Source of the DNA: a virus
Length of the DNA: 64,000 bases
Virus record (IMG/VR): IMGVR_UViG_3300037346_000220
Location: 32,001-96,000 of that record
Direction: 5' to 3' (one strand)
Shown here in pieces: positions 8,614 through 28,607 of this stretch (positions are counted from its first letter, which is position 1; each line of letters starts with the position of its first letter). Made by a program: the position numbers and the translations under genes. The notes beneath the pieces were generated by a model. It was not told the origin of the DNA. It worked only from the letters and a program-made list of their open reading frames with translations, and ran no database searches.

Positions 8614-8820
8614 TTACCACTTTCCCACTGGACATTTAGCTGCTAATAGTGTTGTCTTTAATCTCATAAAGCATCCACACTTTTTACATTTCTGAGCTTT
8701 ACTATTAAAGTGTTCACAGAGTTTACAGATAGCCATTCTCTCATCGTATAAGTCCTTATCGCTTCTTGGTTGCTTAGGATTAAATAGATCGGAAAATGAT
8801 ACATCATCATCGTTACCCAT
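8614..8820 (-). CDS. DUF6171-like Cys protein, copy 1 (R..IC..C...C..CGC.M..K...CP.GKW)
   Basis: Motif shared with 16520 and 28373; leaderless ATG 6 nt after TATACT. Confidence 0.75.
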   Translation of the reverse strand: MGNDDDVSFSDLFNPKQPRSDKDLYDERMAICKLCEHFNSKAQKCKKCGCFMRLKTTLLAAKCPVGKW

Positions 8821-8962
8821 GGTTATAGTATACACCATCAGATACCCCACCGCTTTCGTCTTTACTATTTTTTTAATATTTATTAGACATATGTTGGTGG
8901 GAATACTGATTGAGGATCTCTATATCGTCGAACTTAAACGCCGACTCAAATCCGCCGAGTAC

Positions 8963-12130: not shown

Positions 12131-12853
12131 ATGATATCTAAAGAGATGGATTTTCCTTCCTCAAAAAAGACAAGGTATGTCGATCAAGTAGCTCAGGCTA
12201 ACACCTTAGAGCCTTCTGTTGTCACCTACCTTCCCGTTCCAGGTCCAGTAGGTCCAAAAGGTGACACAGGAAATATAGGAAGCCAAGGGCCCATAGGCCT
12301 TCCAGGAAAAGATGGAAAAACTGGACCTAAAGGCAAAGAAGGAAATCCAGGAAAAGATGCACCTGGTCATCTCCCCTCTTCGGGCCAGGGTATAGGGTGG
12401 GCTAGGTATTCTCCTAAAAAAATAGAAGAGGTTATTACTGGAGCAACAAGAGGGACTGACGGCTGGGTAGACTTATCCTTTAAAACATCGAATACCGTAG
12501 AGTTTAATAACTTTTTGCCACTAGGCTCTGCAGGACTTTATTCTCCAGGCTCAAGAAGACTTAACTTCAAAGGTTTAAAAATAGGGGCAAGAGTTTCTGT
12601 GACCTACAAGCTTTCAGTCACAACCTTAAGCCCCAATACCGAAATCATATTGAGATCTTATTTCCCACAAACAAAGAAGCAAGTCCTTACCTTGGTAGGC
12701 ACTACAAAATATGTTCACACTTACAGTTTTGACGTAACTCAGGACTTCGTAATTGAAAACGAGTCTGATCGAGTGTCAGGAGCAATCCCAGAAATGCTAA
12801 CTGATATGAGCGCAATGGCCTCACTTGAAAGTGTCACTATTTTTGTATCTTAA
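12131..12853 (+). CDS. collagen-like protein with C-terminal beta-sandwich
   Basis: G-X-Y run from about aa 39 to 78; leaderless promoter. Confidence 0.75.
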   Translation: MISKEMDFPSSKKTRYVDQVAQANTLEPSVVTYLPVPGPVGPKGDTGNIGSQGPIGLPGKDGKTGPKGKEGNPGKDAPGHLPSSGQGIGWARYSPKKIEEVITGATRGTDGWVDLSFKTSNTVEFNNFLPLGSAGLYSPGSRRLNFKGLKIGARVSVTYKLSVTTLSPNTEIILRSYFPQTKKQVLTLVGTTKYVHTYSFDVTQDFVIENESDRVSGAIPEMLTDMSAMASLESVTIFVS

Positions 12854-13899: not shown

Positions 13900-14819
13900 T
13901 GTCTGAAAACATAAATTCTAACTATGACCCAGTTGAAGAAACTGGAGAGCTTTACAACACTCAGATTCCAGAGTTGTCAGAAGATGCAAACATTCAAGAG
14001 GCCCTAAAGTATTTTCACTATGGGACTTTAACAACCCCAACTCAAAACTCAGAAATTTTGGAAAACTCTCTGGCTGGTCACTTAAAAAATCTTAAGACGC
14101 AAGTCCAGGTACAAGCTAGCAGAGGGATAGGTTCAGACTTTGGGCCTACACTGCCCCTAACCCCTGAAGACGGGTTCGTATTCGTAAAGTCAAATTCCAC
14201 TGCAGCAGTTTTCTCAAATACCCAGCTATCAGCCATCTATGACCCTGTAGAGCCAACAGAAAACTTAATAGCAGGAATGCTATGGGCAGATTCATCTCTT
14301 AGCCCAGCAGAGCTAAGTATCTACACAGGAGTAGAGTTCGTGCCCGTATCTTCACAAGGTGGCTCAGCCACTGCTCCAGGATCCTATACAGAAAAAAGCC
14401 TTTCGGGCTTAGGTACTGACGTCATAGGTCTAGACGCAACGACTGCCACAGGATTCGGAGTCTCGACAATTTTTGGGTATATAGAAGGTGCAGATGGAGT
14501 GCCTTTTGCTGCAACGCTACCCGTTACAAACGGAATGACAAAAATAGAAGTCCAGTTTTCTTTTGGCTTTCAGTCCACGTCAACAACCGCAGGAGACATC
14601 CAGATAGCTCGTGTCCTAAACGGAAACTTTGCTGCTCCCACACCTGTTGGAAAAATTTACTTTTCTGGAGGAGCTACCCCTCCTCATGTAGTGTTTGTAG
14701 ACACGCATGGACAAGTAGAAGGCTCAGTTATTTCCTATGTAATGTTTAACTCAACTACAGAGACTATAACTTTTGACGGAAACTATATAATTCAGGCTAT
14801 TGCCAAGGAGGTTGCATAA
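13899..14819 (+). CDS. minor tail/fibre protein
   Basis: ORF track; P...G.LW.D motifs seen in fibre proteins. Confidence 0.6.
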   Translation: MSENINSNYDPVEETGELYNTQIPELSEDANIQEALKYFHYGTLTTPTQNSEILENSLAGHLKNLKTQVQVQASRGIGSDFGPTLPLTPEDGFVFVKSNSTAAVFSNTQLSAIYDPVEPTENLIAGMLWADSSLSPAELSIYTGVEFVPVSSQGGSATAPGSYTEKSLSGLGTDVIGLDATTATGFGVSTIFGYIEGADGVPFAATLPVTNGMTKIEVQFSFGFQSTSTTAGDIQIARVLNGNFAAPTPVGKIYFSGGATPPHVVFVDTHGQVEGSVISYVMFNSTTETITFDGNYIIQAIAKEVA

Positions 14820-15454
14820 TGTCAACAGTTAGCTCAGCAGGAAAAGTTGCATATGTATATGACGAAGGAACTGATACGTGGTTCCCCGTAGCTGGCTCTG
14901 CAAACACTTCAGAAGACTATAGCTGGTCAGGAAGCCACAGGTTTTCTAATTCCGTATCCTTTGACCAAGTTGTTGGGTCCAAAGCTGGAGTTAACAATTT
15001 CTCGGGTCCAGCAGAAAGAGACCTAGCTATCCCCACACCCGTCAATGGTGTAGTAGCTTTCTTAAGAACCGATACTTCAGGAAAACAGGTAAACAACATT
15101 CAGTATTACCACAACGGTACTTGGAGAGTTTATGGAGACAACGCAAACCTTGTAGAAAAAACCTCAAACTACTCCTTGACGTTGGGGGACGGAGGTAAGA
15201 CATTTATGATGACATCTTCTTCCCAAGTTGGAGTTTCTATTCCTACCAACGCTTCCGTTTCATACCCTATAGGAACTCAATTTGCTTTTATTCAAACTGG
15301 AACTGGAAGCATTGTCTTCTCCCCTATAGAGACTAATACAACTACAATCTTAAGCAAGAACAATAATAGGAAAACAGCATCACAGATCTCTCAGGCTATT
15401 CTGGTCAAAAAAGAAGCAGACGTCTGGATGCTGATGGGCGACCTTACTGCCTAG
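14819..15454 (+). CDS. tail-fibre-associated protein with 'GDL'-ending C-terminal domain (cassette 1)
   Basis: EKT..Y.L...D...IP.NASV.YPIGT....Q.G.G...W...GDLTA shared with 20710 and 24286. Confidence 0.7.
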   Translation: MSTVSSAGKVAYVYDEGTDTWFPVAGSANTSEDYSWSGSHRFSNSVSFDQVVGSKAGVNNFSGPAERDLAIPTPVNGVVAFLRTDTSGKQVNNIQYYHNGTWRVYGDNANLVEKTSNYSLTLGDGGKTFMMTSSSQVGVSIPTNASVSYPIGTQFAFIQTGTGSIVFSPIETNTTTILSKNNNRKTASQISQAILVKKEADVWMLMGDLTA

Positions 15455-15462
15455 GAGGCAAG

Positions 15463-16278
15463 ATGATAGGCATAGGCGGAAAGTTTGCATCCTCTAAAGG
15501 AATGGTCGCAGTACCTTCAATTATAGGATTGACAGTATCCCAAGCTCACATAGCAATCCAGAATTCTGGACTTGAAATTGGTACTCAGGGAAGCACTAGT
15601 GGGTCCTCAAGTCAAAACGGAAAACTAGCCTCTCAAACAACGCCTTCTGGAACTCTTGTAGATTACGAAAGCACCATAGGGTTTGCTGTATACCTCTATA
15701 CTGCCCCAAGCGCCCCCTCAGGACCTTACCTAGTATCTACAAACACTGGTCCTAACTGTGGTACAGTTCTTGCAACAGGAATCATTTCACAAACCTGTGT
15801 GGGAAACAATTATGTAACTATTGTAGGAACTCAGAACGTAACAACGTACCGCTATAATTACTCCGATGGAACCTCCTCCTCTGGATACTCAGTTTGCTTT
15901 TCAGGACAGCAAGAATCATCAGTACCCTCTCAAGCCTGTGCTGATCAAAATGCCCCACTGCCCCCACCGCCTGTCCCCTCTAACTGTACATCATGCACCA
16001 ATGGAAGCTATACTTACTCGGGATCTGATTCAGGTTGTGCCTCTGGTAACGCCTGGTACAGCGTCTGTATTTTTAACTCTGGCTGCCAACCAGCCTCATC
16101 AACATCTAGAAACTGTGTCCCAGTTCCACGTCCACCAGAGCCCGTAAAATGCAAATGCACGGCTGGCTGTGGGGCTACCTGGAGTGGTGCCTGCACTGGC
16201 GGCACCCAAGTCCAAGCCATAAGGTGCACAGCCTGTGACTGTAGCTCATCTGTACGAAGCTGGACCAACCCCTGCTAG
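15463..16278 (+). CDS. PASTA-domain protein with 18-Cys C-terminal region
   Basis: VPSIIGLTVSQA..AIQNSGL...G.LASQ....GTLV...STI is a PASTA pattern; Cys counted in translation. Confidence 0.75.
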   Translation: MIGIGGKFASSKGMVAVPSIIGLTVSQAHIAIQNSGLEIGTQGSTSGSSSQNGKLASQTTPSGTLVDYESTIGFAVYLYTAPSAPSGPYLVSTNTGPNCGTVLATGIISQTCVGNNYVTIVGTQNVTTYRYNYSDGTSSSGYSVCFSGQQESSVPSQACADQNAPLPPPPVPSNCTSCTNGSYTYSGSDSGCASGNAWYSVCIFNSGCQPASSTSRNCVPVPRPPEPVKCKCTAGCGATWSGACTGGTQVQAIRCTACDCSSSVRSWTNPC

Positions 16279-16296
16279 ATATGTTATACTCTGTAT

Positions 16297-16527
16297 ATGG
16301 GTATTAGATATTTTGCATTTGTAGTGGGAGAAGATGTTTCAACAGTCTTTGCTGTAGACGACGAGCAATCATACAATAAAGCGGTTATCGCTGGCTTGCG
16401 CTCAGGACCCGTAATCATAGAGACAGATGAGTCTCAAGTTTCTTTAGGTTGGAAGTATCGAGATGGAGAGTTTCTTCCTCCGTTTTTAGGTGATGATGAG
16501 GGGCCAGGGTACGAGATAGATGACTAA
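16297..16527 (+). CDS. small accessory protein (F.VV...V / V..GW.Y.DG.F..P)
   Basis: Motif shared with 26999 and the C-terminus of 27967; leaderless promoter. Confidence 0.7.
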   Translation: MGIRYFAFVVGEDVSTVFAVDDEQSYNKAVIAGLRSGPVIIETDESQVSLGWKYRDGEFLPPFLGDDEGPGYEIDD

Positions 16528-16771
16528 TGCCTGGGACAGGTACAAAGAAAAACTAGGAGACACCAGACCTTGGGATCTTTTAAACCCCAACACAGTTTAC
16601 GCAGACAAGTCTGTTGCCCAAGAGAGATACAGCATCTGCAAGGCCTGCCCAAAACTTTTACCAACAAAGCAATGCGACGAATGTAAGTGCTTTATGAAAG
16701 TTAAGGTTACTCTTGCAGAAGCAGAATGCCCATTACATAAATGGGGTAAGTCTAACCAGGAAACTGATTAA
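16520..16771 (+). CDS. DUF6171-like Cys protein, copy 2
   Basis: RYSICKAC...QCDECKCFMKVK...ECPLHKW. Confidence 0.75.
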   Translation: MTNAWDRYKEKLGDTRPWDLLNPNTVYADKSVAQERYSICKACPKLLPTKQCDECKCFMKVKVTLAEAECPLHKWGKSNQETD

Positions 16772-17339
16772 GCATAGCCTTAGCTTTTTCGCTAGTAGTC
16801 CAAGCACTCCAGGAAGAGCCTCCGTCAGAGATTACATATGCAACTCTAGAGTTTACTTCAGGGCTAAAGAGTTCTTCATTAGTTTTAAGACCATGTTGCT
16901 TGAGTCTTGCTGGACCCATGCTCCCAATCATGTTGATCTGAAAAAGACCGTAAGAGTTGTCTCCAGTACTTGAGTTTTGGTTATGAGCATAGAGCCTGTT
17001 TGTTGATTCAAGCTTTACTACAGCCCAAGCCATCTGCAACCCTTTACCAGAAAATCCAGCGTTCTCTAAAACTGATATAAGATCTGTGTCAGACAAGACC
17101 ATCTTCTGAAAATCTTCTCTAAGCCAGGGCTGGGTTGTTTTGATAGAAACCTCTAGCCTGGAAAAACTTCTAGATTCTGATAATACTTCTATAAGGTTCA
17201 TTCTGTTGCCGACAGAAAGTGTTTGTGTGATTTCTAATTCTTTAGCAAAGGCTCGTGGGGTTTCAATTTCGTTACACTGGCTAACACCAGTCAAAATTCC
17301 TGCGACGATACCAAGGGAAACAATGGCTTTTTTCTCCAT
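16752..17339 (-). CDS. lytic transglycosylase / lysozyme-like protein with N-terminal signal or anchor
   Basis: ES catalytic motif, SYGLFQIN, N...A..I..GG..W.AW. Confidence 0.8.
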   Translation of the reverse strand: MEKKAIVSLGIVAGILTGVSQCNEIETPRAFAKELEITQTLSVGNRMNLIEVLSESRSFSRLEVSIKTTQPWLREDFQKMVLSDTDLISVLENAGFSGKGLQMAWAVVKLESTNRLYAHNQNSSTGDNSYGLFQINMIGSMGPARLKQHGLKTNEELFSPEVNSRVAYVISDGGSSWSAWTTSEKAKAMLNQFPG

Positions 17340-17417
17340 AAGATAACATTATACCAGGGTTATTGTCCTAAATCAACCTTGCGATGTAATCTTAAAGTAT
17401 TATGGTATACTTTTACT

Positions 17418-17792
17418 ATGGCAACCCAAAGAGGATCAACGAACTCATACGAAGTAGGAAACACTCCACCAAAAGTATCTTGGACGGTTGTCCGTGGTGA
17501 CACGGCGTCATTTCGGGTATATGTAACTGACGACAATAAGGTTTCCTTAAACATTCCCGACTGGGACATAAAGATGGACATAAAAAGAGCTGGGACCTTG
17601 GTTATGTCTTTGAGCCCCTCAGCAATCTTAGGAGAGGCCCCAGGAGAGTTTACGGTTTCTCTTCTGTCCTCTCAGTCAGAAATTTTAGAAACAGGAGATG
17701 TCTTCGATATACAGCTAACTTCCAACCCAGCACTCTACGTATGGACAGTTGCAAGTGGCAGCTTAGTAATCTTTGAGGATGTAACAAAATAA
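17418..17792 (+). CDS. virion protein, BppU-N-like (paralog 3)
   Basis: RGDT...FDIQL...WTVA.G....EDVT; leaderless ATG 6 nt after TATACT. Confidence 0.6.
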   Translation: MATQRGSTNSYEVGNTPPKVSWTVVRGDTASFRVYVTDDNKVSLNIPDWDIKMDIKRAGTLVMSLSPSAILGEAPGEFTVSLLSSQSEILETGDVFDIQLTSNPALYVWTVASGSLVIFEDVTK

Positions 17793-18097
17793 TGGCTTCA
17801 TCAGCTATTCTTAAGCAAACTCAAAAAGTTGAGATGCAAACAAAGTTCTTCCCTAAAGCCACATTCCTTTCTGGTGAGTCAACATCTCTGAAGATAACAG
17901 ACCTTGTCCATAACACCGAAAAAGTCCAGTCCGCACATTTTTCAAACTCAAAAGCCTTTGCTAACGAAAGAGCAGCTTTAGTATCTGAAAGACTCCCATT
18001 TCGGGTGAGAATAACCAATTTGGGAGTGGCTTATGGCCCCAGCCACCCTGCTCCCATTGGAATTGCCATACTGGGTTTGAACAACTATATACTTTAA
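17792..18097 (+). CDS. hypothetical
   Basis: ORF track; TAATG coupling. Confidence 0.6.
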   Translation: MASSAILKQTQKVEMQTKFFPKATFLSGESTSLKITDLVHNTEKVQSAHFSNSKAFANERAALVSERLPFRVRITNLGVAYGPSHPAPIGIAILGLNNYIL

Positions 18098-18129
18098 AAA
18101 CTTTAAAAAATACCCCCTATAATGTATAT

Positions 18130-18576
18130 ATGGCTAGAGTATCAATCCCTTATGTAAAGACCAGGTTCGAGACTGGCGACCGCCCAGAACAGGCGGACTA
18201 TCAAGACCTGATAGACACAGCAGCAGGCCAGGCAACTGATCTGGGAACCGCTGGAAACAACGAGAACACTATTGCTGGTATTGAAAACATCACGGTAATT
18301 GACAGCTTTGACGCTAGTCAGTGGAGACTTGTTAAGTACTTGGTTTCAATCTCAAAGACTTCATTCGGAGACAATAAGTTTTACGCAACAGAACTTTCCA
18401 TACTGGTAGACGGCACAGATATATCTGTCACAGAGTACGGAGTAATAGACAATGATGGGAATATGGGCACCATCGATGTTTCTAGAACTGGAGATACCGT
18501 TGCATTGACGGTGACCCCTGATTCAGTAATCAAGCCAGTGACCGTGCGATTTGCTCGCATGGGTCTCAAGGCCTAA
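18130..18576 (+). CDS. virion protein (FETGD.P...D..DLID motif)
   Basis: C-terminal TEYG domain similar to that of 18594..20150. Confidence 0.7.
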   Translation: MARVSIPYVKTRFETGDRPEQADYQDLIDTAAGQATDLGTAGNNENTIAGIENITVIDSFDASQWRLVKYLVSISKTSFGDNKFYATELSILVDGTDISVTEYGVIDNDGNMGTIDVSRTGDTVALTVTPDSVIKPVTVRFARMGLKA

Positions 18577-18593
18577 CTAGGAGATTAAAAAAA

Positions 18594-20150
18594 ATGGCAA
18601 CAGTTAATAAAGATTTCAAGGTAAAAGCTGGCTTAGTCGTTGAGGGTGCCTCAGGTACCATTAATGGCTATAGCGTACTAACAGAGGCTCAGGCCAGCAT
18701 AGACTTCATCGTAAACACTATTGGGGGAACAGCTACATCAACATCGACTCCAAATACTGTAGTGAAGCGTGACGAGAACTCAGACTTTTCAGCAGGAGTA
18801 ATAACTGCAGACATAGTCGGAAGCCTTACTGGTGACGTAACTGGAAACTCTGATACCTCAACAGCTTTAGAGACTCCGAGGACTATCTCCGTAAGTGGCG
18901 ATGCTGTCGGTTCTGTATCTTTTGATGGAACATCTGACGTATCAATTGCAATCACCTTAGACTCAGCATTTGCTACCGATGTAGAGGTTGGTACCTCTAA
19001 GAGTGAAGCTGTAACCGAAGCTGCTTCTTACACAGACGGAGAAATTTCTACTCTAGAAGCTTCCTTGCAGTCTTATGCCGATCTAGCTCAGTCAGATGCA
19101 GAGACTTCTGCTGCCTCTTACACAGACGCTCGTGAATCAGCTATTACCTCTGCATACCAAAGCTACACAGATACAGCAGAAGCTGATGCAAACACATATG
19201 CAGACTCTGCAATCGCAGCTCTAATCGGAGGAGCCCCAGAGCTTCTAGACACTCTTAATGAACTAGCAGAGGCTATTGCCGATGACCAAAACTTCTCAGC
19301 AACAGTAGTTAACGACATTGCAGCAGGTCTTGTAACAGCTAAGGACTACACAGACACCCGTGAAGGTCTTATCACTACAGCCTACCAGGGTTATGCAGAC
19401 ACTGCTGAAGCCGATGCGATCTCTACCGCAGCTTCAGATGCAACTGCTAAAGCCGACACAGCAGAGTCAGAAGCAAATAGCTACACTGACACCGAAATTG
19501 CCACAGAGGTTAGCAGTCGTAACACAGCTATTACTACAGCTGTTGACGCCCTAGATACAGACGCTATAGAGGAAGGTTCTTCAAACTTCTATTTCACTGA
19601 TGAAAGAGCTCAGGATGCTGTCGCAGCCTCCATTGCTGCTGGTTCACACCAAAACATTACTGTGACTTACGATGATGCTCTTGGCTCTCTAACTCTTGTT
19701 GCAGAAAACGGAGTAGCAGATTCTGACACGGACGATTTGGTAGAAGGTTCCACAAACTTGTACTTCTCAAGTGCACGTGCGGTGGCAGCTCTGGAAGCAG
19801 TAGTCCCTAACTTTACAGAGGTAGACCTTAACTCAGTTGCAACTCAAGTAGCTGCTACTCAAACAGTCTCTACCGCAAGTCAAGTCGTAGGATATTCCTT
19901 TAGCGGTACTTCCTACAGGACAGCAGAATTTGTAGTAAAATCTGCTTCAGGTGTGCACACAGAAGTTTCAAAGGTTCTTTTAACTTTGGACACAGCAAAC
20001 AATATTTCCATTACCGAGTACGGAGTAGTAGGAACTAATGGTTCTCTATCAACTCTTTCTGCAGGTATGGATGGGAACACGGTTCAGCTACTAGTTACAA
20101 CCCTTAACAACGGCACAGATGTTACAGTTGTTGGTACACTAGTAGTATAG
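18594..20150 (+). CDS. tail fibre protein
   Basis: L.TPRTI..SGD..GS.SFDG.SDV, APE.LDTLNELA and EGS.N.YFT motifs; coiled-coil shaft. Confidence 0.75.
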   Translation: MATVNKDFKVKAGLVVEGASGTINGYSVLTEAQASIDFIVNTIGGTATSTSTPNTVVKRDENSDFSAGVITADIVGSLTGDVTGNSDTSTALETPRTISVSGDAVGSVSFDGTSDVSIAITLDSAFATDVEVGTSKSEAVTEAASYTDGEISTLEASLQSYADLAQSDAETSAASYTDARESAITSAYQSYTDTAEADANTYADSAIAALIGGAPELLDTLNELAEAIADDQNFSATVVNDIAAGLVTAKDYTDTREGLITTAYQGYADTAEADAISTAASDATAKADTAESEANSYTDTEIATEVSSRNTAITTAVDALDTDAIEEGSSNFYFTDERAQDAVAASIAAGSHQNITVTYDDALGSLTLVAENGVADSDTDDLVEGSTNLYFSSARAVAALEAVVPNFTEVDLNSVATQVAATQTVSTASQVVGYSFSGTSYRTAEFVVKSASGVHTEVSKVLLTLDTANNISITEYGVVGTNGSLSTLSAGMDGNTVQLLVTTLNNGTDVTVVGTLVV

Positions 20151-20185
20151 TTTCATACAACAATAGAGGCAGGAGGAAGCAATAG

Positions 20186-20644
20186 ATGGCGCTAAGCGAA
20201 AAAGACTTTAAGGTCAAAAATGGAATCCAGGTATCTGGAGACGCTGTAATTGGTGGAACTATAACCGCAGCATCTCCAACATTGGGCAGCCATGTTGTAA
20301 CTTTGGAATATTTTACAGAGAATGCAAACTCTGGCTTTAAGGCACAATCTGTTGCTCCTGTTTCCCCTACTGATGGAGACCACTACTTCGACACTGCTAC
20401 CCAGAGACTAAACGTTTTTTACGATGGCTCCTGGATAACTATGGCCTCAGTAGAAGATACCCAGAATATCCCACAACACATTCACGACACTTCGATTGAC
20501 GGTTCTGGGCTAATAGTTTCAAGATTTACAGATGCAGCATCCCCCACCAGTCCACAGGGAGCACCAGTGGATGGCGGAGGAGTTTCAACCACATCATGGG
20601 ATTCAGTACTTGACGGTGGCTCAGTTTTAGATAACTTCAATTAG
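20186..20644 (+). CDS. fibre-associated protein
   Basis: N-terminal KDFKVK.G shared with 18594. Confidence 0.65.
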   Translation: MALSEKDFKVKNGIQVSGDAVIGGTITAASPTLGSHVVTLEYFTENANSGFKAQSVAPVSPTDGDHYFDTATQRLNVFYDGSWITMASVEDTQNIPQHIHDTSIDGSGLIVSRFTDAASPTSPQGAPVDGGGVSTTSWDSVLDGGSVLDNFN

Positions 20645-20709
20645 CCTAAAAAAGTTGGTATAATAGTAAAAGGCTTAAACGTGACACCCTAAAAGTAGGA
20701 GAATGGACT

Positions 20710-22560
20710 ATGGCAACAAGGATGCAACAGAGGCGTGGTACCGCAGCAGAGTGGACCAGCATTAACCCAGTTTTAGCTGGCGGAGAGATCGGCTATGAGT
20801 CAGACACTGGCCGTTTCAAAATGGGCGATGGAACAAACAATTGGGAGAACCTGTACACTTACGGCTCTATAGACTCAATTCTTGACGCAGCCCCAGAAAC
20901 TCTTAATACTCTAAATGAGCTGGCAGCAGCTATAAATGACGACCCCAGCTTCTACACAAATGTCGGTCTAGCAGTCTCAACCGCAAAGACCGAAGCTATA
21001 TCTGAAGCAGGAACATATGCAGACCTCCTTATTGGAGATGGAACTGTCGACGGAACATCTGGAAATACAGTAACAGCCAGAATTCAATCTGCGATCAGTG
21101 ACCTTGTTGGTGATGCACCTGGAGCACTAGACACTCTAAACGAGCTCGCAGCAGCACTTGGCGATGACTCAAACTATGCAGCAACCATAACACAGATTGT
21201 CTCTAACATCCAGCAAAGCGTAATTGACGCAACAACGTCTCTTAACGAAGGTATAGCCCTTGCCAGAACAGATCTGGGAGCAGATATTGACTCTGGAATC
21301 GCAGATGAAGTAACAAACAGAGACAGTGCAATCTCAGCAGCTGTAGACCTGGAGGCAACTGCCAGAGGCTTAGCCATCGCAGCAGATAGCTCAGACACCC
21401 TAGATGCGTACACTTTGGCAGTAGCTGCCGAGGCAACGGCTAGAGAAGCAGCAATCACCGACCTAGGCACAACGATAACTACAGCATATCAGGACTACGC
21501 CGATACAGCCGAATCTGATGCAATTGCGACCTCTTCGACAGACGCAAGCAGCAAAGCAGATGACGCACAATCAGCTGCAGAGCTAACAGCTTCAATAGCT
21601 TTGACGTCTCACAATGACGCTACTACGTCTGTGCACGGTATTGCAGACACCTCGGTGCTTGCCACAAAAACAGACGTGAGTACGGCACAGACAAATGCTG
21701 AGAGTTATGCAGATGGCCTTTCAGGTAACTATGATGCAGTAGGTTCAGCTTCTACAGCTCAGGATGCAGCAGAGTCTACTGCAGCCTTAGCTCTGACAGC
21801 GCATAATGACGATACTACCTCGGTGCACGGAATTGTGGATACCTCAAAACTAGTTCTTACAGAGGCTGCAAGTCAGACAATCACTGGAGACTTTATTGTT
21901 ACTGGAGATCTGACTGTTTCGGGAACGACAACCACAATCGATACTGCAAATTTTGAAACAACTGACCCTTTGATTGCACTTGGAGAAGGAAACGTTACAA
22001 ATGCAGTTGACCTTGGTTTTGTCTCAACATTCAATGACGGAGTCCAGCAAATAACTGGTTTCGCCAGAGATGCGTCCTCTGATACTTGGAAGTTGTTTAA
22101 GGGAGTTACTGACGTTCCAACTACAACTATTAACTTCGCCCAGGGATCCTTGGATGACCTATCAGTTAAAGATTTGTCTGCTGCTGTCGTAAATGCTGCT
22201 TCTGTGGTATTTGCAGACGGAACAACTCAAACTGTAGCAGCAGTGCCTTCCCTGACAGTATTCTCAGAAAAGACTGCTAGTTACACTCTAGACACCATCG
22301 ACCACAAGGACAACTTGGTTGAGGTAAACTCTGGTAGTGCAACTACATTTACTATCCCAACGAACGCCTCTTTGGCCTGGCCAGTAGGAGCTTCAATGGA
22401 TATTCTTCAGACTGGCTCTGGTCAGGTAACTATTTCCCCAGCAAGCGGAGTAACTCTAAACTTTACTCCTGGAAATAAGTTACGCACTCAGTGGTCATCT
22501 GCTACAATACTTAAAAGGTCTGCAGACTCATGGGTTGTCTACGGCGACCTAACAGCTTAA
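20710..22560 (+). CDS. tail fibre with Mtd N-terminal domain (cassette 2)
   Basis: QQRRGT..EW...NPVLA.GEIG.E.DT..FK.GDG; GDLTA C-terminus. Confidence 0.8.
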   Translation: MATRMQQRRGTAAEWTSINPVLAGGEIGYESDTGRFKMGDGTNNWENLYTYGSIDSILDAAPETLNTLNELAAAINDDPSFYTNVGLAVSTAKTEAISEAGTYADLLIGDGTVDGTSGNTVTARIQSAISDLVGDAPGALDTLNELAAALGDDSNYAATITQIVSNIQQSVIDATTSLNEGIALARTDLGADIDSGIADEVTNRDSAISAAVDLEATARGLAIAADSSDTLDAYTLAVAAEATAREAAITDLGTTITTAYQDYADTAESDAIATSSTDASSKADDAQSAAELTASIALTSHNDATTSVHGIADTSVLATKTDVSTAQTNAESYADGLSGNYDAVGSASTAQDAAESTAALALTAHNDDTTSVHGIVDTSKLVLTEAASQTITGDFIVTGDLTVSGTTTTIDTANFETTDPLIALGEGNVTNAVDLGFVSTFNDGVQQITGFARDASSDTWKLFKGVTDVPTTTINFAQGSLDDLSVKDLSAAVVNAASVVFADGTTQTVAAVPSLTVFSEKTASYTLDTIDHKDNLVEVNSGSATTFTIPTNASLAWPVGASMDILQTGSGQVTISPASGVTLNFTPGNKLRTQWSSATILKRSADSWVVYGDLTA

Positions 22561-22582
22561 TAACTAGGAGAAGAGAAAAGAC

Positions 22583-23374
22583 ATGGCAAAAAAAGAAGCA
22601 GGCGGTAGGTCAGCATCACAGAATGACTTCCTGGAGCCACTAACACCAGTAAGCGTAACAGCTTCCAATGTCGGCACAAGCCGAGTATACAACGACGGAG
22701 CTGCCACAGTTTCATTTTCACTTCCAGCTAACTCACCAGCTGCAACTTCTTATTTAGTTACAGCCTCTACTGGACAAACGGGGACTGGATCTTCATCTCC
22801 AGTAACGGTAGAAGGGCTGGGTTCTTCCAGCACTCCAACTTTTACAGTTGTAGCTTCTAACGCATCTGGCGACTCAGGTTCCTCATCCGCTACAACGGCT
22901 ATTACAATAACCACAGTTCCAGCAACCATGGCAGCACCATCCGTTAGCACTCCAACTCCTTCATCAAGCACAAACCAAACAGGAACATCTACAGACTCAG
23001 TATCCTGGAGTGCACCAAACAATGGTGGATCCTCAATAACCACTTATCGCTGGACATCCTCTGATGGAAAGACGGGGACAGAAGCTGGAACATCTGTGTC
23101 AGTAAGCCAAGAGGGTGGCTCTGCTCAAACATATTCTGTTCGTGCAGAGAACTCTAACGGATCTGGATCTTACTCAAACAACTCTTCAAGCATAACCACT
23201 TTTGGATTTACTCCATTTAGTTTTGCTCCTTTTGGGTTTACACCATTTAGCTTTACTCCATTTAGCTTTACCCCCTTTGGAGCTTTTGGGTTTACCCCCT
23301 TTGGAGCTTTTGGGTTTACCCCGTTTAACTTTGCTCCTTTCGGATTCGCTCCATTTAACTTTTCACCCAGGTAA
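22583..23374 (+). CDS. FN3-domain protein with C-terminal F-x-F-x-P repeats
   Basis: Two FN3-like units (W.AP.NGGS.IT.Y; Y.V.A.N..G); repeat tail. Confidence 0.8.
   Translation: MAKKEAGGRSASQNDFLEPLTPVSVTASNVGTSRVYNDGAATVSFSLPANSPAATSYLVTASTGQTGTGSSSPVTVEGLGSSSTPTFTVVASNASGDSGSSSATTAITITTVPATMAAPSVSTPTPSSSTNQTGTSTDSVSWSAPNNGGSSITTYRWTSSDGKTGTEAGTSVSVSQEGGSAQTYSVRAENSNGSGSYSNNSSSITTFGFTPFSFAPFGFTPFSFTPFSFTPFGAFGFTPFGAFGFTPFNFAPFGFAPFNFSPR
23201..23371 (+). repeat. coding tandem repeat F[GSN]F[TAS]P, including an exact 24-bp duplication (23267-23314)
   Basis: tttaccccctttggagcttttggg x2 within degenerate 15-bp units. Confidence 0.85.
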
Positions 23375-23420
23375 TTCCACCTGTGTGATATAATTATTAA
23401 ATAGAGAAGGGGTCTTACCG

Positions 23421-24092
23421 ATGCAACCTGAAAAAGCCATGCCACAACCAATGCAAAGCCATTCTAAGTCAACTCAGCCACACAAGTTCTTTGAGTCATT
23501 TCTAGACAATGACTTGGAGTCTTTAGCAAATGAGTTACAGGCCAGGTACCAGCTAATTGAAAACGTTGAGATTAGAGGTGTCACTCCTGTCACCGAAGCA
23601 GATGGTTGGATAGACTCTGGCAGTGTTTCAACTATGAAGTGGCAACAATACAACGTCTTCCAGTTTAACATTCCTGGTGTTCATAACCTTTACAAGGCCT
23701 TGTCTGAGATGGTTCACGAAGCCTGTAATTACTATGGAATAGATTTTGAGTCACAGAAATTTGTAGTCCAAGGCTGGTTCAATATTAACCACACAAAGAC
23801 TGGGAAGCTAGATTGGCACGACCATGGCCCTGGAGGGGCCCCTCTATTTCACGGATACTATTCCGTAGCAGCAGAGCCTTCTGAGACACACTATATCGTA
23901 ACGAACCAGGAAAAAAGAATTAATCATAATGTCAACAATCGTGCAATCTTGTCAGAGATGGCCCACCCACATGCTATGGCAGATTGGTCTTGGGAAGGCC
24001 CAAGAATAACAATCGCATATGATGTTCTTCCTATGGAGCACCTAATACCAGGAGGACCAGGCCAGGAGCAACATTGGATACCTCTAATCTAA
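23421..24092 (+). CDS. 2OG-Fe(II) oxygenase-like (DSBH) protein
   Basis: WFN...WHDH...GYY...H.M...RITIAYD pattern. Confidence 0.7.
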   Translation: MQPEKAMPQPMQSHSKSTQPHKFFESFLDNDLESLANELQARYQLIENVEIRGVTPVTEADGWIDSGSVSTMKWQQYNVFQFNIPGVHNLYKALSEMVHEACNYYGIDFESQKFVVQGWFNINHTKTGKLDWHDHGPGGAPLFHGYYSVAAEPSETHYIVTNQEKRINHNVNNRAILSEMAHPHAMADWSWEGPRITIAYDVLPMEHLIPGGPGQEQHWIPLI

Positions 24093-24229
24093 AAAAGATT
24101 TTATGCTTTATGGGAAAGCACGATATAGTCATAGCTACATGCCCATTCACTAAAGCAGAAGCCAAGTCCTGTACCAGGTGTGACTTTGGAGACTCTCACA
24201 AAAAAGACAGTGGCATGTCCTTTAGCTAA
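24074..24229 (+). CDS. 51-aa Zn-binding microprotein (LC..GKH...CP...C.RC)
   Basis: Hand-translated; TTG start with AGGAG RBS. Confidence 0.55.
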   Translation: MDTSNLKKILCFMGKHDIVIATCPFTKAEAKSCTRCDFGDSHKKDSGMSFS

Positions 24230-24285
24230 TAAAACAATGTTATACTTAACTATCCTGGTATTTTTATGCCAGATAGGAGATCATA

Positions 24286-25971
24286 TTGCTAATTAGGCTT
24301 CAACAAAGAAGAGGTACAGACACTCAGTGGTCTTCCTCAGACCCCGTTCTTGCTGCTGGAGAGATTGCCCTATCTACCGATGACCAAACATTCAGGATGG
24401 GTGATGGAGTAACGGCTTGGTCCTTGTTGCCATATTTTCAGAATGCAGCAGACATAGAAGTAATCCGATTAGCCGTCTTGGCAAACGCAAACTCCTATTC
24501 TGACACAGAGCTTGATGCAGCTATCTTATCAACTGAGAGTACCCTCTCACAAGCCATCAGCGACTCAGAGACGGCAGCAAACACTTACACGGATACCGAG
24601 ATAGCCTCTCTAATTGATTCAGCACCAGAAACTCTAAACACTCTTAAAGAAATAGCAGAAGCCATTGCTGAGAACGACGGAGACATCGGCACAATTCTTG
24701 CAGCTTTAGATACAAAAGCTGCAACCGACCACACGCATACCCTCTCCGACCTAACAAATGTAGACCCCTCAGGAGCTAATTTAAACGATGTTCTGTTTTT
24801 CGACGACTCCGATCAAACCTGGAAGCCAAAAGAACTTATAGGCATCGATGCCATAACTGTAACTACTGGAGTCCCCACAGGAGCAGGAGAGCTATCCTAT
24901 AATTCCAACACAGGGGCTTTCAGTTTTGCTCCAGCCATAACTGGAGTTACAGCAGGATCTTTTGGGGTATTGAATAGCACAACCACGTTTGCTGCATCCA
25001 CAGGATCTGTATATACTTATTGGGATGGAGCAAAGAAACTAGAAGTGTCCATAACTACGACTTCTAGTTACGTAAACCTAATAAGCCTGACCAGCGACCA
25101 CTTCGGCTCGTCCTCGGTAAAGCTTGTTCGGGTGGTTGACTCTGTAGAGACAGATCTCTTCACTTGGCCAATCTTAGGTACTAGGGACTTTGGCTGGACG
25201 TACTACGATCAGCATAATCTAGACGTAGGGACAGTAGTTACCTATAGAATTAAGGGACAGGCGTCATCAGGTACCTCGTACATTGGTCAAAACGCTGATG
25301 TTCAAATGCATGTTCAAGAAGTAGCTGGGGCTTTGGGAGGACAGCCTACAAGCCCAGACATATCCGTAGCCGTTGAGGGTACTGGAAGCACCACTGGTGG
25401 CTTGGCTTACGACGACGGACTTCTTACTTACACCCCAGTGCTTCCTGCAGCAGCAGCACTATCAGAATTAACTGACGTAGATTTAACTGGATTGTCAGAC
25501 ACGGATGTCTTAGCTTATGATCTAGCCTCTGGAACTTGGTTACCAGGTTCTGCAGCATCATCTGTAGCCCAACTTTCCGACGTAGACCTAACAGGCATGA
25601 TTGATAAATCCCTGTTGCAGTACTCTTCTTCATCGGATAAGTGGGAAGCTACGTCTATAGACATAGCTCCAAGTCTTGTAGCTTTTAACCCCAGGTACGG
25701 ACCCTACACTTTTGAGATCACAGACAAAGACAAGATGGTAGAATGTACATCGGAGGTTACCTTCACGGTACCCAACAACTCTTCAGTAGCCTTTCCAATT
25801 GGATCAACGATAACTGTTATGCAGAAAGGTTCTGGTCAAATTACTATTGTGGGAGCTTCTGGGGTGTCTCTGAACTTCACCCCTAGCAACAAAACAAGGA
25901 CCCAGTACTCTTCAGCAACTCTAGTAAAGAGAGATACGAATGTCTGGTACTTGATGGGGGACCTAGAGTAA
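24286..25971 (+). CDS. tail fibre with Mtd N-terminal domain (cassette 3)
   Basis: QQRRGT..QW...DPVLAAGEI; APETLNTL; L..L.DVD repeats; GDLE C-terminus. Confidence 0.8.
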   Translation: MLIRLQQRRGTDTQWSSSDPVLAAGEIALSTDDQTFRMGDGVTAWSLLPYFQNAADIEVIRLAVLANANSYSDTELDAAILSTESTLSQAISDSETAANTYTDTEIASLIDSAPETLNTLKEIAEAIAENDGDIGTILAALDTKAATDHTHTLSDLTNVDPSGANLNDVLFFDDSDQTWKPKELIGIDAITVTTGVPTGAGELSYNSNTGAFSFAPAITGVTAGSFGVLNSTTTFAASTGSVYTYWDGAKKLEVSITTTSSYVNLISLTSDHFGSSSVKLVRVVDSVETDLFTWPILGTRDFGWTYYDQHNLDVGTVVTYRIKGQASSGTSYIGQNADVQMHVQEVAGALGGQPTSPDISVAVEGTGSTTGGLAYDDGLLTYTPVLPAAAALSELTDVDLTGLSDTDVLAYDLASGTWLPGSAASSVAQLSDVDLTGMIDKSLLQYSSSSDKWEATSIDIAPSLVAFNPRYGPYTFEITDKDKMVECTSEVTFTVPNNSSVAFPIGSTITVMQKGSGQITIVGASGVSLNFTPSNKTRTQYSSATLVKRDTNVWYLMGDLE

Positions 25972-25972
25972 T

Positions 25973-26998
25973 ATGGGCATAAAAGCAATCTTGCGAGCAG
26001 GACAACAATCTCTTTTGAAAGAGGTTAGCCTAAACTTAAGCTCTGAACCAGACCTCTCTATTGACGCAAGCCTTGTCAACAACTCTTTAAGCTCAACAAC
26101 AAGAACAAATGCTAGAGGATCCACGTGGAGTTTTACTAGAGGTACCTGGGGGATTCTGTCAGGAAAGCTAAAAGCATCTAATCCCTCAAGTTATCCCATT
26201 GCCGTAGTTGACGCATTAGTCCCAAACGTAGAAATAAATATTAAAGATATTGGACAGGGCTCTGGAACCGCTCTTTGGTATACGGACAGCGATAACTGGT
26301 GGGGTGTCGGAGTGTATCAAGACTCTGAGAATTGTAACTGTACAACCTCATACTATAGCTGCAACTGTACTGCATACAGCTACTGTACAGGTGGCTATAC
26401 AACCTGCAATTCTGGCAGTGAACAACCTAATGGCACTTGGGCTCAACACTATAGCTATCAGACGTGCGGCCCAGCTTATGTCTTTAACTACTGCTCTTCT
26501 TATGGGACTATTAACTATAATTACACCTATGGGTACACTAATACAGGCTGTACGGGGTACTCCCAAGGTAGTAACGCCGTTTGTACAACTCATCAAAATA
26601 CTGTGATACATCAAAACTACGCATTTGTTTGTAACTCTTCGACCTATACTTGCAATCAGTGGGCTGGGGGCTCAAGCTGCTCAATATGTGCCTCAACAAG
26701 TTGCCAAACTTGCTACCCAGCGTATGTTAGAATGGTAAGGTCAGCATCAGCTACAGTTTCCACGTTGGCAACGTATGCAATTGATTATGTGGCAAGGTCT
26801 CTAAGAGTTTTCGTAAAAGACAAGCAAGTTACCATCCAACCATTTTCTGACGCAGCTGGGAATACATCTATTGGAAGCGAGATAATCTATGATGCGTCAG
26901 CAGCGACAGAGACTACAAAATTTGGAATTCTGATTTCACCTTCATCTTACGATGAGCAAGGATCCATACAAGATATATCTATCAAAAGGAGATACTAA
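25973..26998 (+). CDS. putative adhesin with 16-Cys Tyr/Thr/Ser-rich insertion
   Basis: All 16 Cys fall in aa 121-247; flanks are beta-rich. Confidence 0.7.
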   Translation: MGIKAILRAGQQSLLKEVSLNLSSEPDLSIDASLVNNSLSSTTRTNARGSTWSFTRGTWGILSGKLKASNPSSYPIAVVDALVPNVEINIKDIGQGSGTALWYTDSDNWWGVGVYQDSENCNCTTSYYSCNCTAYSYCTGGYTTCNSGSEQPNGTWAQHYSYQTCGPAYVFNYCSSYGTINYNYTYGYTNTGCTGYSQGSNAVCTTHQNTVIHQNYAFVCNSSTYTCNQWAGGSSCSICASTSCQTCYPAYVRMVRSASATVSTLATYAIDYVARSLRVFVKDKQVTIQPFSDAAGNTSIGSEIIYDASAATETTKFGILISPSSYDEQGSIQDISIKRRY

Positions 26999-27232
26999 AT
27001 GTCATTACCAGACATCCCAGCAATATCAGAGATAAACTCAGGCCGATACCCATTTAACATTGCCGTAGTGATTGACAATGTCGTGTACTCAGTCTTAAAC
27101 CTACCAGGTTCCCAGGCAGCGCTTTACGCCGCTCAGCCAACATTTGTCCAGGTTGACTTTAATCAGGTTGTTACAGGTTCGGTCTATAACCCTGCCGATG
27201 GAACATTTACTGACCCAGAAGTAAACGAATAG
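26999..27232 (+). CDS. small accessory protein (paralog of 16297)
   Basis: IAVVID..V...V..G..Y...DG.F..P. Confidence 0.7.
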   Translation: MSLPDIPAISEINSGRYPFNIAVVIDNVVYSVLNLPGSQAALYAAQPTFVQVDFNQVVTGSVYNPADGTFTDPEVNE

Positions 27233-27277
27233 GGGGCTAACTCGACAAACCCCCATGGGGTTTAGATTGGACAAAAT

Positions 27278-27967
27278 GTGAAGCTTATTAGGTTTACCTC
27301 GCATAAAGATTATGAATCATCTGGACAACCTGTCCCAGCAAAGAAGACCGTGCCCCAATGGTTTAAGGATGCAGAAGTTACCTTTACCGTACCAGGGTCT
27401 AAAACTCCTATGTCAGGGTTAAAGAAATGTATACCTTACCTTGATGTTCTGACCTCAGGGTATATGCTTGTAACTCCAGCTGACATCTATATCTCTCAAA
27501 ATAAGTCTGGCGATGGCATTGACGTCAAATGGGACGAGTCTCCCTCAGGAAGCTTTATAGATGAGAGGCCAAAAGAGCTTGGAGCAACAATGCCAAGACC
27601 AGAGGGCTTTGCTCCTAATCACATGGTTTGGGTAGGTCGCTGGGGTTGGAAAGTCCCTAGGGGTTACAGTGTCCTCGTAACACACCCTTTTAATAGGTTA
27701 GATCTGCCATTCCATACTCAGTCTGCTATTATCGATAGTGATAGTTTTTTTGCCCCAGGAAACATCCCCTTCTTCATAAATAAAAGCTTCTCTGGGAAGA
27801 TACCAAAAGGGACTCCTTTTGCACAGCTGCTGCCAATTAAGCGTGACAGTTGGAAGATGGTAAAAAATGATCAGGCCTTGCTAGAAATTGCAGATCTCCA
27901 GGGGCACGTCGTCCGATCTGATGCCCCGTACAGAATGATATCTTGGTTTAGAAAGAAGTATGACTAA
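27278..27967 (+). CDS. DUF6065-like (dUTPase-like fold) protein
   Basis: P.W.K...KKC.P..D....GY, P.GYS.L.THP.NR.DLPF, KGTP..Q..P.KR. Confidence 0.55.
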   Translation: MKLIRFTSHKDYESSGQPVPAKKTVPQWFKDAEVTFTVPGSKTPMSGLKKCIPYLDVLTSGYMLVTPADIYISQNKSGDGIDVKWDESPSGSFIDERPKELGATMPRPEGFAPNHMVWVGRWGWKVPRGYSVLVTHPFNRLDLPFHTQSAIIDSDSFFAPGNIPFFINKSFSGKIPKGTPFAQLLPIKRDSWKMVKNDQALLEIADLQGHVVRSDAPYRMISWFRKKYD

Positions 27968-28413
27968 TGACTAAAAAAAGCAAAAATGTAAACAAGGACG
28001 GAATTAGGAAGCCAGTTCCTGCCATCGTAAACTTGGAAGCAGCTAGGTTCGTAAAGATCTCTACAGCCCAGCTAATAAAGATATGGCTAAGAAAAAAGAT
28101 TATAGGAGAATCAGACATTGCTGGTAAGATTCATGAGCTAGAGCATAAGGCTCTAATGAAGGAGCAGACAGAAGACCCGTCTTACAACCCCACCCCCACT
28201 TCGGTCAAGGCTTACCACCTAGCTGTAGTCGTTGAGGGCAACGTCGTAGAGATAATGAGGGCTTCAGACGGTATGACAGAGATTCTGCTAATGTCCCCAG
28301 ACTTTATAGTTTACCTTCCAAAAGAGACTGACGTCAAGATTGGAATGGAGTATAAGAACGGAGACTTTGTAGATGTCGCAGAAGAATTTGCCAAAGATAC
28401 CACCACTGAATAA
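27967..28413 (+). CDS. accessory protein with C-terminal domain paralogous to 16297/26999
   Basis: LAVVVEG.V...V.IG..Y.NG.F. Confidence 0.65.
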   Translation: MTKKSKNVNKDGIRKPVPAIVNLEAARFVKISTAQLIKIWLRKKIIGESDIAGKIHELEHKALMKEQTEDPSYNPTPTSVKAYHLAVVVEGNVVEIMRASDGMTEILLMSPDFIVYLPKETDVKIGMEYKNGDFVDVAEEFAKDTTTE

Positions 28414-28576
28414 ACCTCAAGTTGCTATAAGCAAAGAAACAAGAGAGGCCAGGTATGACACTTGTAAGTCCTGTAAGTTTTTTATGAAGATAAACAGTGT
28501 GTGTAAACTATGCGGTTGTGATATGGAACAAAAGACTCACGTTCAAGAAGCTACCTGCCCAGCTGGTAAATGGTAA
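28373..28576 (+). CDS. DUF6171-like Cys protein, copy 3
   Basis: RYDTCKSC...CKLCGC.M..K...TCPAGKW. Confidence 0.75.
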   Translation: MSQKNLPKIPPLNKPQVAISKETREARYDTCKSCKFFMKINSVCKLCGCDMEQKTHVQEATCPAGKW

Positions 28577-28607
28577 AAAAAATAGTTTATTATGCTAAAA
28601 TAGAAAC

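Follow-up and report, generated by a model that had tools for sequence, protein, structure and literature searches.

The closest described counterparts of the locus discussed here are the branched adsorption complexes that CBA120 (TSP1-4) and G7C (gp66/gp63.1) build on modules resembling T4 gp10/gp9. In these, too, one phage has several receptor-binding proteins, and a conserved module presumably carries partners that are encoded by genes of their own (PMC8825819). In CBA120, residues 80-178 of TSP4 form an XD1 module that also occurs in gp9 and gp10 and in the glycan-binding domains of StcE and CpaA (PMC8825819). A different parallel is the Skp1 hydroxyproline-GlcNAc pathway of Dictyostelium and Toxoplasma, which comprises the prolyl 4-hydroxylase (P4H) PhyA and Gnt1, a transferase of CAZy family GT60 (PMC12101541). 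Finally, Iyer et al. (2010; PMC2938197) read the dioxygenase arrays of cyanophages, such as gp41-gp54 of Syn9, as secondary-metabolite enzymes, and also described bacterial operons that combine a 2-oxoglutarate (2OG) oxygenase, a sulfotransferase and tail-collar or collagen-like proteins, with the fibre-like proteins as proposed substrates. The locus considered here lies in a 64,000-nucleotide (nt) stretch of phage DNA, the window, which consists of bases 32001-96000 of the complete 111,267-bp IMG/VR record IMGVR_UViG_3300037346_000220, a genome with direct terminal repeats. This one genome carries three different cassette types side by side, each with a fibre gene ending in the same C-terminal domain (the GDL knob), a gene for a putative fibre tip with an unusual low-complexity tract, and accessory genes. 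To our knowledge, none of the nearest described systems has helper sets matched to the chemistry of a fibre tip, and none gives a role to the DUF6171 proteins that recur in these cassettes.

On balance, we lean towards reading the small genes behind each tip as factors that mature this particular tip and whose type is set by the chemistry of its tract. Cys-rich tracts would be served by a short VGY protein together with a DUF6171 protein, Phe-rich FxF...R tails by a PF13759-like 2OG oxygenase, and tips of the family named TIP3 by a DUF6065 protein together with a long VGY protein; the fibre ends in an XD1-type β-sandwich knob, and the coupled gene would provide the tip on the distal end of that knob. 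New in this proposal are the rule that ties Cys to DUF6171 and VGY, the assignment of the knob to the XD1 type together with the match between knob clades and tips, and the observation that FxF...R tails go together with the PF13759-like oxygenase. The genes concerned, with lengths in amino acids (aa) and the basis of each assignment in brackets, are the following:

14819..15454, + strand: fibre 1, 211 aa, with the GDL knob at about residues 108-209 (paralogy, AlphaFold (AF2) model)
15463..16278, + strand: tip 1, N-terminal PASTA-like module at aa 1-80, then a Pro-containing 18-Cys tract ending in Cys (Pfam PASTA)
16297..16527, + strand: short VGY protein 1, 76 aa (alignments)
16520..16771, + strand: DUF6171 copy 1, 83 aa, six invariant Cys, CxxC-x8-CxxCxC-x12-C (Pfam, 27.2 bits)
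20710..22560, + strand: fibre 2, 616 aa, Mtd_N N-terminus, GDL knob C-terminal (Pfam Mtd_N, 1.4e-10; knob paralogy)
22583..23374, + strand: tip 2, N-terminal part of about 200 aa that is FN3-like, and an FxFxP tail of 57 aa with Arg as its last residue
23421..24092, + strand: protein with a 2OG-Fe(II)-oxygenase fold near PF13759, invariant H133, H135, H184 and R195 (alignment, AF2, Foldseek)
24286..25971, + strand: fibre 3, 561 aa, Mtd_N N-terminus, GDL knob C-terminal (Pfam Mtd_N, knob paralogy)
25973..26998, + strand: tip 3, a TIP3-family member of 341 aa, conserved at both ends, with 16 Cys in a variable central tract (alignment)
26999..27232, + strand: short VGY protein 2, 77 aa (alignments)
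27278..27967, + strand: DUF6065-family protein, 229 aa (phrog_7084, 1.5e-32)
27967..28413, + strand: long VGY protein, 148 aa, VGY module in the C-terminal half (alignments)
28373..28576, + strand: DUF6171 copy 2, 67 aa (Pfam, 30.9 bits)
8614..8850, - strand: DUF6171 copy 3, not part of any cassette, the next gene downstream of 8963-9853 (-) (Pfam, 34.2 bits)

The inventory of the first-pass annotation was right for the genes that it listed and incomplete, as it omitted the DUF6065 protein at 27278, the long VGY protein at 27967 and the third DUF6171 gene. Its interpretation of the locus, a modular system of adaptor fibre, swappable tip and dedicated factors, is partly supported by the results discussed below.

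The evidence for pairing comes from a comparative set of well over 100 related phage contigs, whose loci are labelled L plus a number. The tips belong to three families (PASTA-like, FN3-like and TIP3), each with a conserved N-terminal module of its own that is unrelated to the other two, and every tip joins its family-specific module to a hypervariable low-complexity tract. In a separate sample of 77 DUF6171 genes, from contigs picked solely for carrying DUF6171, a protein with at least eight Cys was encoded among the three upstream genes in 55 cases, versus 6 of 619 background open reading frames. Among the PASTA-type tips, DUF6171 lies within 1.6 kb of 15 Cys-rich members and further downstream of the other three; of the Cys-poor members, one has it and ten lack it. 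In the TIP3 family, DUF6171 accompanies 25 of the 27 Cys-rich members versus none of the four Cys-free ones, which are also without the short VGY protein, keep DUF6065 and have a recognisable long VGY protein in two cases. The Cys tails of the FN3-like family are likewise paired with VGY and DUF6171, and in the syntenic relatives L009, L011, L030 and L056, where Phe/Pro tails replace the Cys tract, both DUF6171 and VGY are missing (with one VGY exception). When pooled and stratified, DUF6171 is found with 52 of 56 tips of at least eight Cys versus 3 of 19 tips of zero to three Cys, and the link holds whether or not a P4H or GT60 gene is nearby. By sequence, the Cys-rich proteins encoded next to DUF6171 form eight clusters when the two such tips of the window are counted in. 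Co-occurrence of tract type with accessory genes in homologous loci, whose absence the first-pass annotation had named as the result that would refute its scheme, is therefore strong. The same stratified counts rule out another candidate explanation, that DUF6171 is a mere passenger of a block of P4H and GT60 genes.

Several points weigh against a functional reading of these counts. The loci were chosen by similarity to the studied phage, so that many of them are kin, and the counts overstate independence, the Cys-free TIP3 tips being a single clade; independent-pairs tests on the three tip-family trees yielded one to five pairs, with significance out of reach, and in the paired rows of the FN3 family the DUF6171 status is mostly identical within pairs. 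Furthermore, DUF6171 copy 3 lies among small non-fibre genes and DUF6171 of Stenotrophomonas phages among small early genes, in both cases with no Cys-rich neighbour, the Atlas model of DUF6171 is of low confidence, and the helper functions, a metal or redox role of DUF6171 among them, are predictions. The same kinship feeds a rival explanation, in which tails and neighbours have no function in common and merely move together, block by block, through recombination at a hot spot, the accessory proteins acting on something else, such as host envelope proteins or small metabolites; the independent contrasts are indeed few, and phage dioxygenase arrays have been read as secondary-metabolite enzymes (Iyer et al. 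2010, PMC2938197). Block exchange alone is nevertheless highly improbable, given that three tip families show the same pairing although their N-terminal modules are unrelated, that the Cys-rich neighbours make up eight clusters, that the accessory set changes with tail type at equal N-terminal divergence, and that P4H is present or absent in step with Pro content and with the length of (X-Pro)n. What remains after the kinship caveat is that the pairing recurs in three unrelated tip families.

As for the tips themselves, tip 1 matches PASTA (PF03793) over residues 15-72 with 27.2 bits against a cut-off of 23.2 (E 3.8e-6), which confirms its earlier description as PASTA plus 18 Cys, and in the PASTA-type tips (n=30) conservation is confined to the N-terminal 80 aa. 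The FN3 plus FxFxP architecture assigned to tip 2 holds for the tail, which is encoded by DNA repeats of 15, 24 and 30 nt at 23199-23326, and less well for the fn3 match, which is weak (5.8e-4) and falls below the Pfam cut-off. Tip 3 does have the 16 Cys ascribed to it. They had been described as an insertion, which is ruled out because the Cys-free members among about 40 TIP3 homologues, nearly all directly behind a GDL gene, keep a Tyr/Asn/Thr-rich region at the place of the Cys tract, so that the region is variable and not inserted. Among 41 unique complete Cys-rich tips, the number of Cys is even in 33 (p = 1e-4); Cys is the last residue of 21 tips and is found within the last five residues in 36. 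Because the Cys counts are mostly even and the tracts end in Cys, the Cys-rich tracts are probably disulfide knots; counts of 10, 14, 18, 22 and 30 would fit paired disulfides better than metal sites of four Cys.

DUF6171 (PF19668) is an essentially viral family, carried by more than 577 contigs of IMG/VR, and literature searches on it found nothing directly relevant. The three copies all exceed the curated Pfam cut-off of 27 bits, so that the earlier assignment of a DUF6171-like protein behind both Cys-rich adhesins (16520 and 28373) stands, and an alignment of 20 sequences shows the six invariant Cys in the pattern CxxC-x8-CxxCxC-x12-CP.GKW. The family also occurs fused: DUF6171 is N-terminal to a PF11397 (GT60) transferase in at least 18 clusters and to a PF13640 P4H in one cluster, other fusions involve GT-A-like, sulfotransferase-like and GDL-like domains, and there is a form with three tandem DUF6171 copies. 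The DUF6171-GT60 fusions occupy the position of free DUF6171 behind a Cys-rich tip, with a recognisable VGY gene in between in two of the four loci that extend over the upstream genes. Because DUF6171 is fused N-terminally to GT60, P4H, GT-A-like and sulfotransferase-like enzymes at the same gene position, it is read here as a recogniser of the tract: a six-Cys module, probably metal-binding, that would recognise or hold the Cys-rich tract and couple it to tailoring enzymes, in this phage the PF13640 P4H and the PF11397 GT60, whose genes lie upstream of the window, more than 16 kb away. In its full form, in which DUF6171, either free or as an N-terminal module, hands Cys-rich tracts to hydroxylases, glycosyltransferases or sulfotransferases and the short VGY protein is a co-factor, the proposal is tentative, possible rather than probable. 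If true, the logic of a recognition element plus a swappable enzyme, familiar from ribosomally synthesised and post-translationally modified peptides (RiPPs), would operate in phage structural proteins.

The main rival to this proposal makes DUF6171 purely a redox or metal chaperone, likened to zinc-finger holdases or to factors resembling protein disulfide isomerase (PDI), which, in the reducing cytoplasm, would keep the 16-18 Cys reduced or zinc-bound until assembly or lysis and would recruit no enzyme. It accounts well for the 21 Cys-rich tips that have no P4H or GT60 nearby, all of which have DUF6171, for the two CxxC-type motifs and six invariant Cys of the protein, and for the parity and terminal Cys of the tips, as in disulfide knots. 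Animal collagen P4H has PDI as its β subunit, and such an arrangement would also make the DUF6171-P4H fusion intelligible. However, a chaperone can hardly explain the repeated N-terminal fusions to GT60, GT-A-like and sulfotransferase-like enzymes and leaves the early-gene DUF6171 copies without a Cys-rich neighbour unexplained, and the DUF6171 core has only about 50 residues, with no thioredoxin fold and no flavin site. This explanation is therefore considered unlikely.

The 'V..G..Y.DG.F' proteins at 16297 and 26999, which the first-pass annotation had placed together, show no BLAST significance against each other, and their profiles match small proteins encoded at the equivalent place in another 7 and 36 loci, in agreement with that grouping. 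The position directly behind the tip recurs in dozens of loci and would fit a tip-specific assembly factor; to the class of tail-fibre chaperones (Tfa, gp38, gp57A) the VGY proteins can be likened by gene position only, directly behind the tip. None of 33 members matches a credible Pfam family, the VGY proteins of the window have no PHROG match, and a search for longer, fused VGY forms found none, which is weak evidence. It is also conceivable that VGY and DUF6171 do not mature the tip but are built into the virion as structural parts of it, in the form of small caps or adaptors at the distal end, as both lie in the structural operon and are tightly coupled to the tip genes (the start of short VGY protein 2 overlaps the stop codon of tip 3, TAAATG), and as one natural protein, P0036, joins DUF6171 to a GDL-like domain. 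This view is very improbable in light of the enzyme fusions of DUF6171, unusual for a purely structural subunit, and of a promoter-like motif directly before VGY1 that hints at separate expression.

The motif before VGY1 is an extended -10-like element, an exact ATGTTATACT at 16281-16290 that ends 7 nt before the VGY1 ATG and suggests a leaderless transcript. The same 10-mer is present at 24237-24246, 40 nt before fibre 3, and TGATATAAT is present at 23386-23394, ahead of the oxygenase gene 23421. When one mismatch is allowed, the window has 13 copies of the -10-like 10-mer where 5.1 would be expected; in a scan of 14000-29000 with promoter and terminator consensus sequences, sites were no commoner than in shuffles.

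In L167 (Stenotrophomonas phage Moby, MN095772.1), the DUF6171 gene lies among small early-type genes, with neither a fibre nor a Cys-rich neighbour. In L166 (Synechococcus phage S-IOM18, HQ317383.1, 15888-26121), the DUF6171 gene SWYG_00021 is found five genes behind a fibre and two behind a 9-Cys protein, and is followed by a 201-aa protein with an HH...R motif; this cultured cyanophage is a possible experimental model. In the window, the gene directly upstream of DUF6171 copy 3 (8963-9853, - strand) encodes a 296-aa protein that belongs to no Pfam family, and homologues of this protein are found in enzyme blocks behind DUF6171 in L096, L098, L114 and L129.

The domain that unites the three cassettes is the C-terminal one of the fibres. 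About 100 aa of 14819, 20710 and 24286 are paralogous (E 1.4e-30 and 1.6e-13 against the third copy), and their alignment reproduces the GDL-ended motif by which the first-pass annotation had linked the three genes. The 111-kb genome has the domain in these three fibres only, more than 586 viral contigs contain it, and in unfused genes it always ends 0-2 residues from the stop codon. In the AF2 model of fibre 1, the pLDDT exceeds 90 over residues 108-209, and VIA-align superposes this part on the C-terminal knob of the capsid spike of Pseudomonas phage Pa223 (Z 14.9, rmsd, the root-mean-square deviation, 1.7 Å), on residues 80-180 of CBA120 TSP4 (Z 8.8), on residues 66-165 of T4 gp9 (Z 8.6) and on residues 49-149 of T4 gp10 (Z 8.4). 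Judged by this predicted model, the GDL domain is therefore an XD1-type, presumably trimeric knob, a β-sandwich that superposes on XD1 and whose fold comes from the tool-kit of branched adsorption complexes. For residues 1-107 of the same model, no XD2- or XD3-type match was obtained, only weak ones (Z ≤4.6) to residues 50-108. In the XD1 class, an N-terminal hub is followed by XD2/XD3 docking modules, whereas here the domain forms the last ~100 residues of all three fibres, and no XD2/XD3 docking domains were seen in the one fibre modelled, fibre 1. The partners differ as well, since they are small tips with low-complexity tracts in this locus and enzymatic tailspikes in the branched complexes.

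The idea of an adaptor fibre with a swappable tip gains support from the XD1-type fold, from natural fusions and from the agreement between knob clades and tip families. Each tip gene starts 1-22 nt after its fibre gene and has its own ribosome-binding site; for fibre 1, the stop codon overlaps the AGGAGG ribosome-binding site, 5 nt ahead of the tip 1 ATG. Across the loci, knob and tip genes are adjacent almost without exception, and at least seven contigs, including L096, L110, L112, L114, L118, L130 and L137, encode knob, (Pro-Thr)n-type linker and Cys-rich region as a single chain, with no stop codon, a fusion of the Rosetta-stone type. When tip families are mapped onto a tree built from 84 knob domains, there are 8 changes of family, versus 39 in shuffles, and the window's three knobs each fall within the clade of their own tip family. 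From this we infer that the tip physically sits on the distal end of the knob, a step that stays inferential because co-inheritance alone could give both clade matching and adjacency. Moreover, XD1 modules have been described as spacers and not as docking faces (PMC8825819). The knob could even be the receptor-binding head itself, with the tips as separate appendages that attach elsewhere: its best structural match is the free distal, C-terminal knob of the Pa223 spike, which its authors suspect of binding the host, the same fold is a glycan-binding domain in StcE and CpaA (PMC8825819), and most GDL-bearing contigs have no exotic tip after the GDL gene. We hold this to be quite improbable in view of the natural single-chain fusions of knob, linker and Cys tip, and of knob clades that pair with tip families while the two genes stay adjacent and coupled almost invariably.

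In the second cassette, the helper is an enzyme. The 2OG-Fe(II) oxygenase that the first-pass annotation had placed behind the Pro-repeat adhesin does have the 2OG-oxygenase fold, with a double-stranded β-helix in the AF2 model of 23421 (pLDDT 82, pTM 0.84), for which Foldseek (probability 1.0) gives 3bvc and 2rg4, both of PF13759 type, as best matches, then PHD2 and the P4H of P. putida. The alignment alone yields the pattern HxH...H with an Arg 11 residues past the last His, to be compared with the HxD/E...H iron triad and the basic 2OG-binding residue of the superfamily. With regard to families, 23421 has no Pfam match at E <0.1 and is not a member of PF13640, one of ten relatives matches PF13759 (at 0.11), the Atlas neighbours carry PF13759, and PDB sequence-profile searches with the 23421 and DUF6065 families returned chance-level matches only.

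Among FN3-type tips, a 23421-type oxygenase stands behind all five FxF...R tails versus none of the 27 other tails, and FFPP tails are paired with PF13640 arrays and DUF6065. Arg is the last residue of all the oxygenase-paired tails (L007, L011, L014, L030, L035; …FGFR, …FSFTR, …FSPR), no matter how much Pro they contain, and the tail of L014 is made of Tyr, Asn and Phe, with no Pro, and still has the 23421-type oxygenase. The supposed match of a Pro tract to an oxygenase is thus upheld as a pairing of oxygenase and tail, with Pro no longer the conserved feature. The terminal Arg may be a recognition or target residue, and an aromatic residue, Asn or the terminal Arg is a more likely target of 23421 than Pro, as predicted from the tails. 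Prolyl hydroxylation as the common job of 23421-type enzymes was considered and rejected because Pro is not conserved in the partner tails.

The P4H of this phage is a different gene. The only PF13640 gene of the genome is located outside the window, at C1:5024-5275, and the PF13640 (P4H) and PF11397 (GT60) genes lie 16-27 kb upstream of the window. In the comparative set, each of the 18 Cys-rich tips that contain a long (X-Pro)n linker lies no more than 3 kb from a PF13640 gene, and the Pro content of tips separates those with a PF13640 neighbour from those without. The gene right after DUF6171 is a PF13640 oxygenase in 44 loci, and behind this oxygenase there is in many cases a gene for GT60, GT61, a sugar epimerase or DUF6065. 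The earlier notion that the accessories match the tract is therefore right as to the pairing, but its division into Cys with DUF6171 and Pro with oxygenase is too simple, because the Cys-type cassettes of relatives usually have PF13640 oxygenases and GT60 right behind DUF6171. No directly relevant work turned up in literature searches on an action of P4H or GT60 on the fibres of phages. As to the DUF6065 assignment, 27278 itself has no PF19541 (DUF6065) match, 4 of 12 aligned relatives match (best 3.6e-8), a locus paralogue matches at 4.3e-33, and the family alignment has no invariant His.

These enzymes invite comparison with the Skp1 pathway, as the Pfam description of PF11397 links this family to the GT60 of that pathway. 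In relatives of the phage, a PF13640 oxygenase and then PF11397 follow directly behind the tip, and both genes are present in this genome. However, both are outside the cassettes here, the place of Skp1 as substrate would be taken by virion tips that have (X-Pro)n linkers, in which hydroxyproline would be a prediction, and the Skp1 pathway has no counterpart of DUF6171, VGY or DUF6065. With the cyanophage arrays the locus shares phage-encoded 2OG oxygenases of several families, in arrays; it differs in that the oxygenase type follows the tail chemistry of the adjacent tip and in the added Cys-specific pair of VGY and DUF6171. Mycobacteriophage virions are reportedly O-glycosylated as well (work of Freeman et al. 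in Cell Host & Microbe, 2023), the targets being C-terminal extensions of capsid and tail-tube proteins and the enzymes glycosyltransferases only. There, as would be the case here, a phage of actinobacteria modifies its own structural proteins with its own transferases, but the candidates in this locus are fibre tips, accompanied by oxygenases and Cys-specific helpers. Finally, RiPP clusters resemble the cassettes in that a candidate substrate gene lies beside chemistry-matched enzymes and in that DUF6171 occurs alone or fused to enzymes, as RiPP recognition elements do. The RiPP comparison drawn in the first-pass annotation is valid as an analogy and not as membership, as the putative substrates are folded structural proteins of 263-341 aa with no leader peptide, the cassettes have no protease or exporter gene, and DUF6171 has no detected similarity to RiPP recognition elements.

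Some features around the cassettes complete the picture. The cassette region is part of the structural module, with the portal, protease and major capsid genes next, at 32.5-36.7 kb. Because the major capsid protein has its nearest relatives in Streptomyces siphophages of ~133 kb (44% identity), the host of this uncultured 111-kb phage is likely actinobacterial; a megablast search of the whole region against cultured phages found no match at the DNA level, and the genome has no dUTPase gene. Just upstream of the fibres, three proteins with collagen-like Gly-X-Y repeats (10812-11852, 11870-12088 and 12131-12853) have common N-terminal motifs and are possible further substrates of the phage hydroxylases. 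Between cassette 1 and the next fibre genes lies a lysozyme-like SLT_3 protein (16752-17339, - strand; Pfam 5.7e-15). The 148-aa protein 18130-18576, which matches the PHROG 'baseplate wedge tail fiber protein connector', has a domain in common with the C-terminus of the 518-aa fibre 18594-20150 (32% identity over 71 aa, E 3e-6), and the two may be another docking pair. Further downstream, the adjacent genes 40677-41369 and 41433-41747 encode proteins alike in their first 96 residues (34% identity, E 1e-16) and just precede the gene of a 2279-aa protein (41771-48610), probably the tape measure, judging from size and position.

The wider meaning of the locus lies in the many lake and ocean phage genomes that are rich in 2OG oxygenases, GT60-like transferases, DUF6065 and DUF6171 of unknown role. 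For such genes, the locus offers a concrete candidate substrate, the tract of the adjacent tip, and a testable rule, that tract chemistry predicts the helper set; experiments are feasible because cultured phages such as S-IOM18 carry DUF6171 near a fibre gene. If the rule is true, the proteins by which phages recognise their hosts would be matured by dedicated, exchangeable kits of enzymes and chaperones, which would bear on host-range prediction, on the recombinant expression of receptor-binding proteins, and on how eukaryote-style modifications such as hydroxyproline, O-GlcNAc and disulfide knots arise in bacterial viruses.

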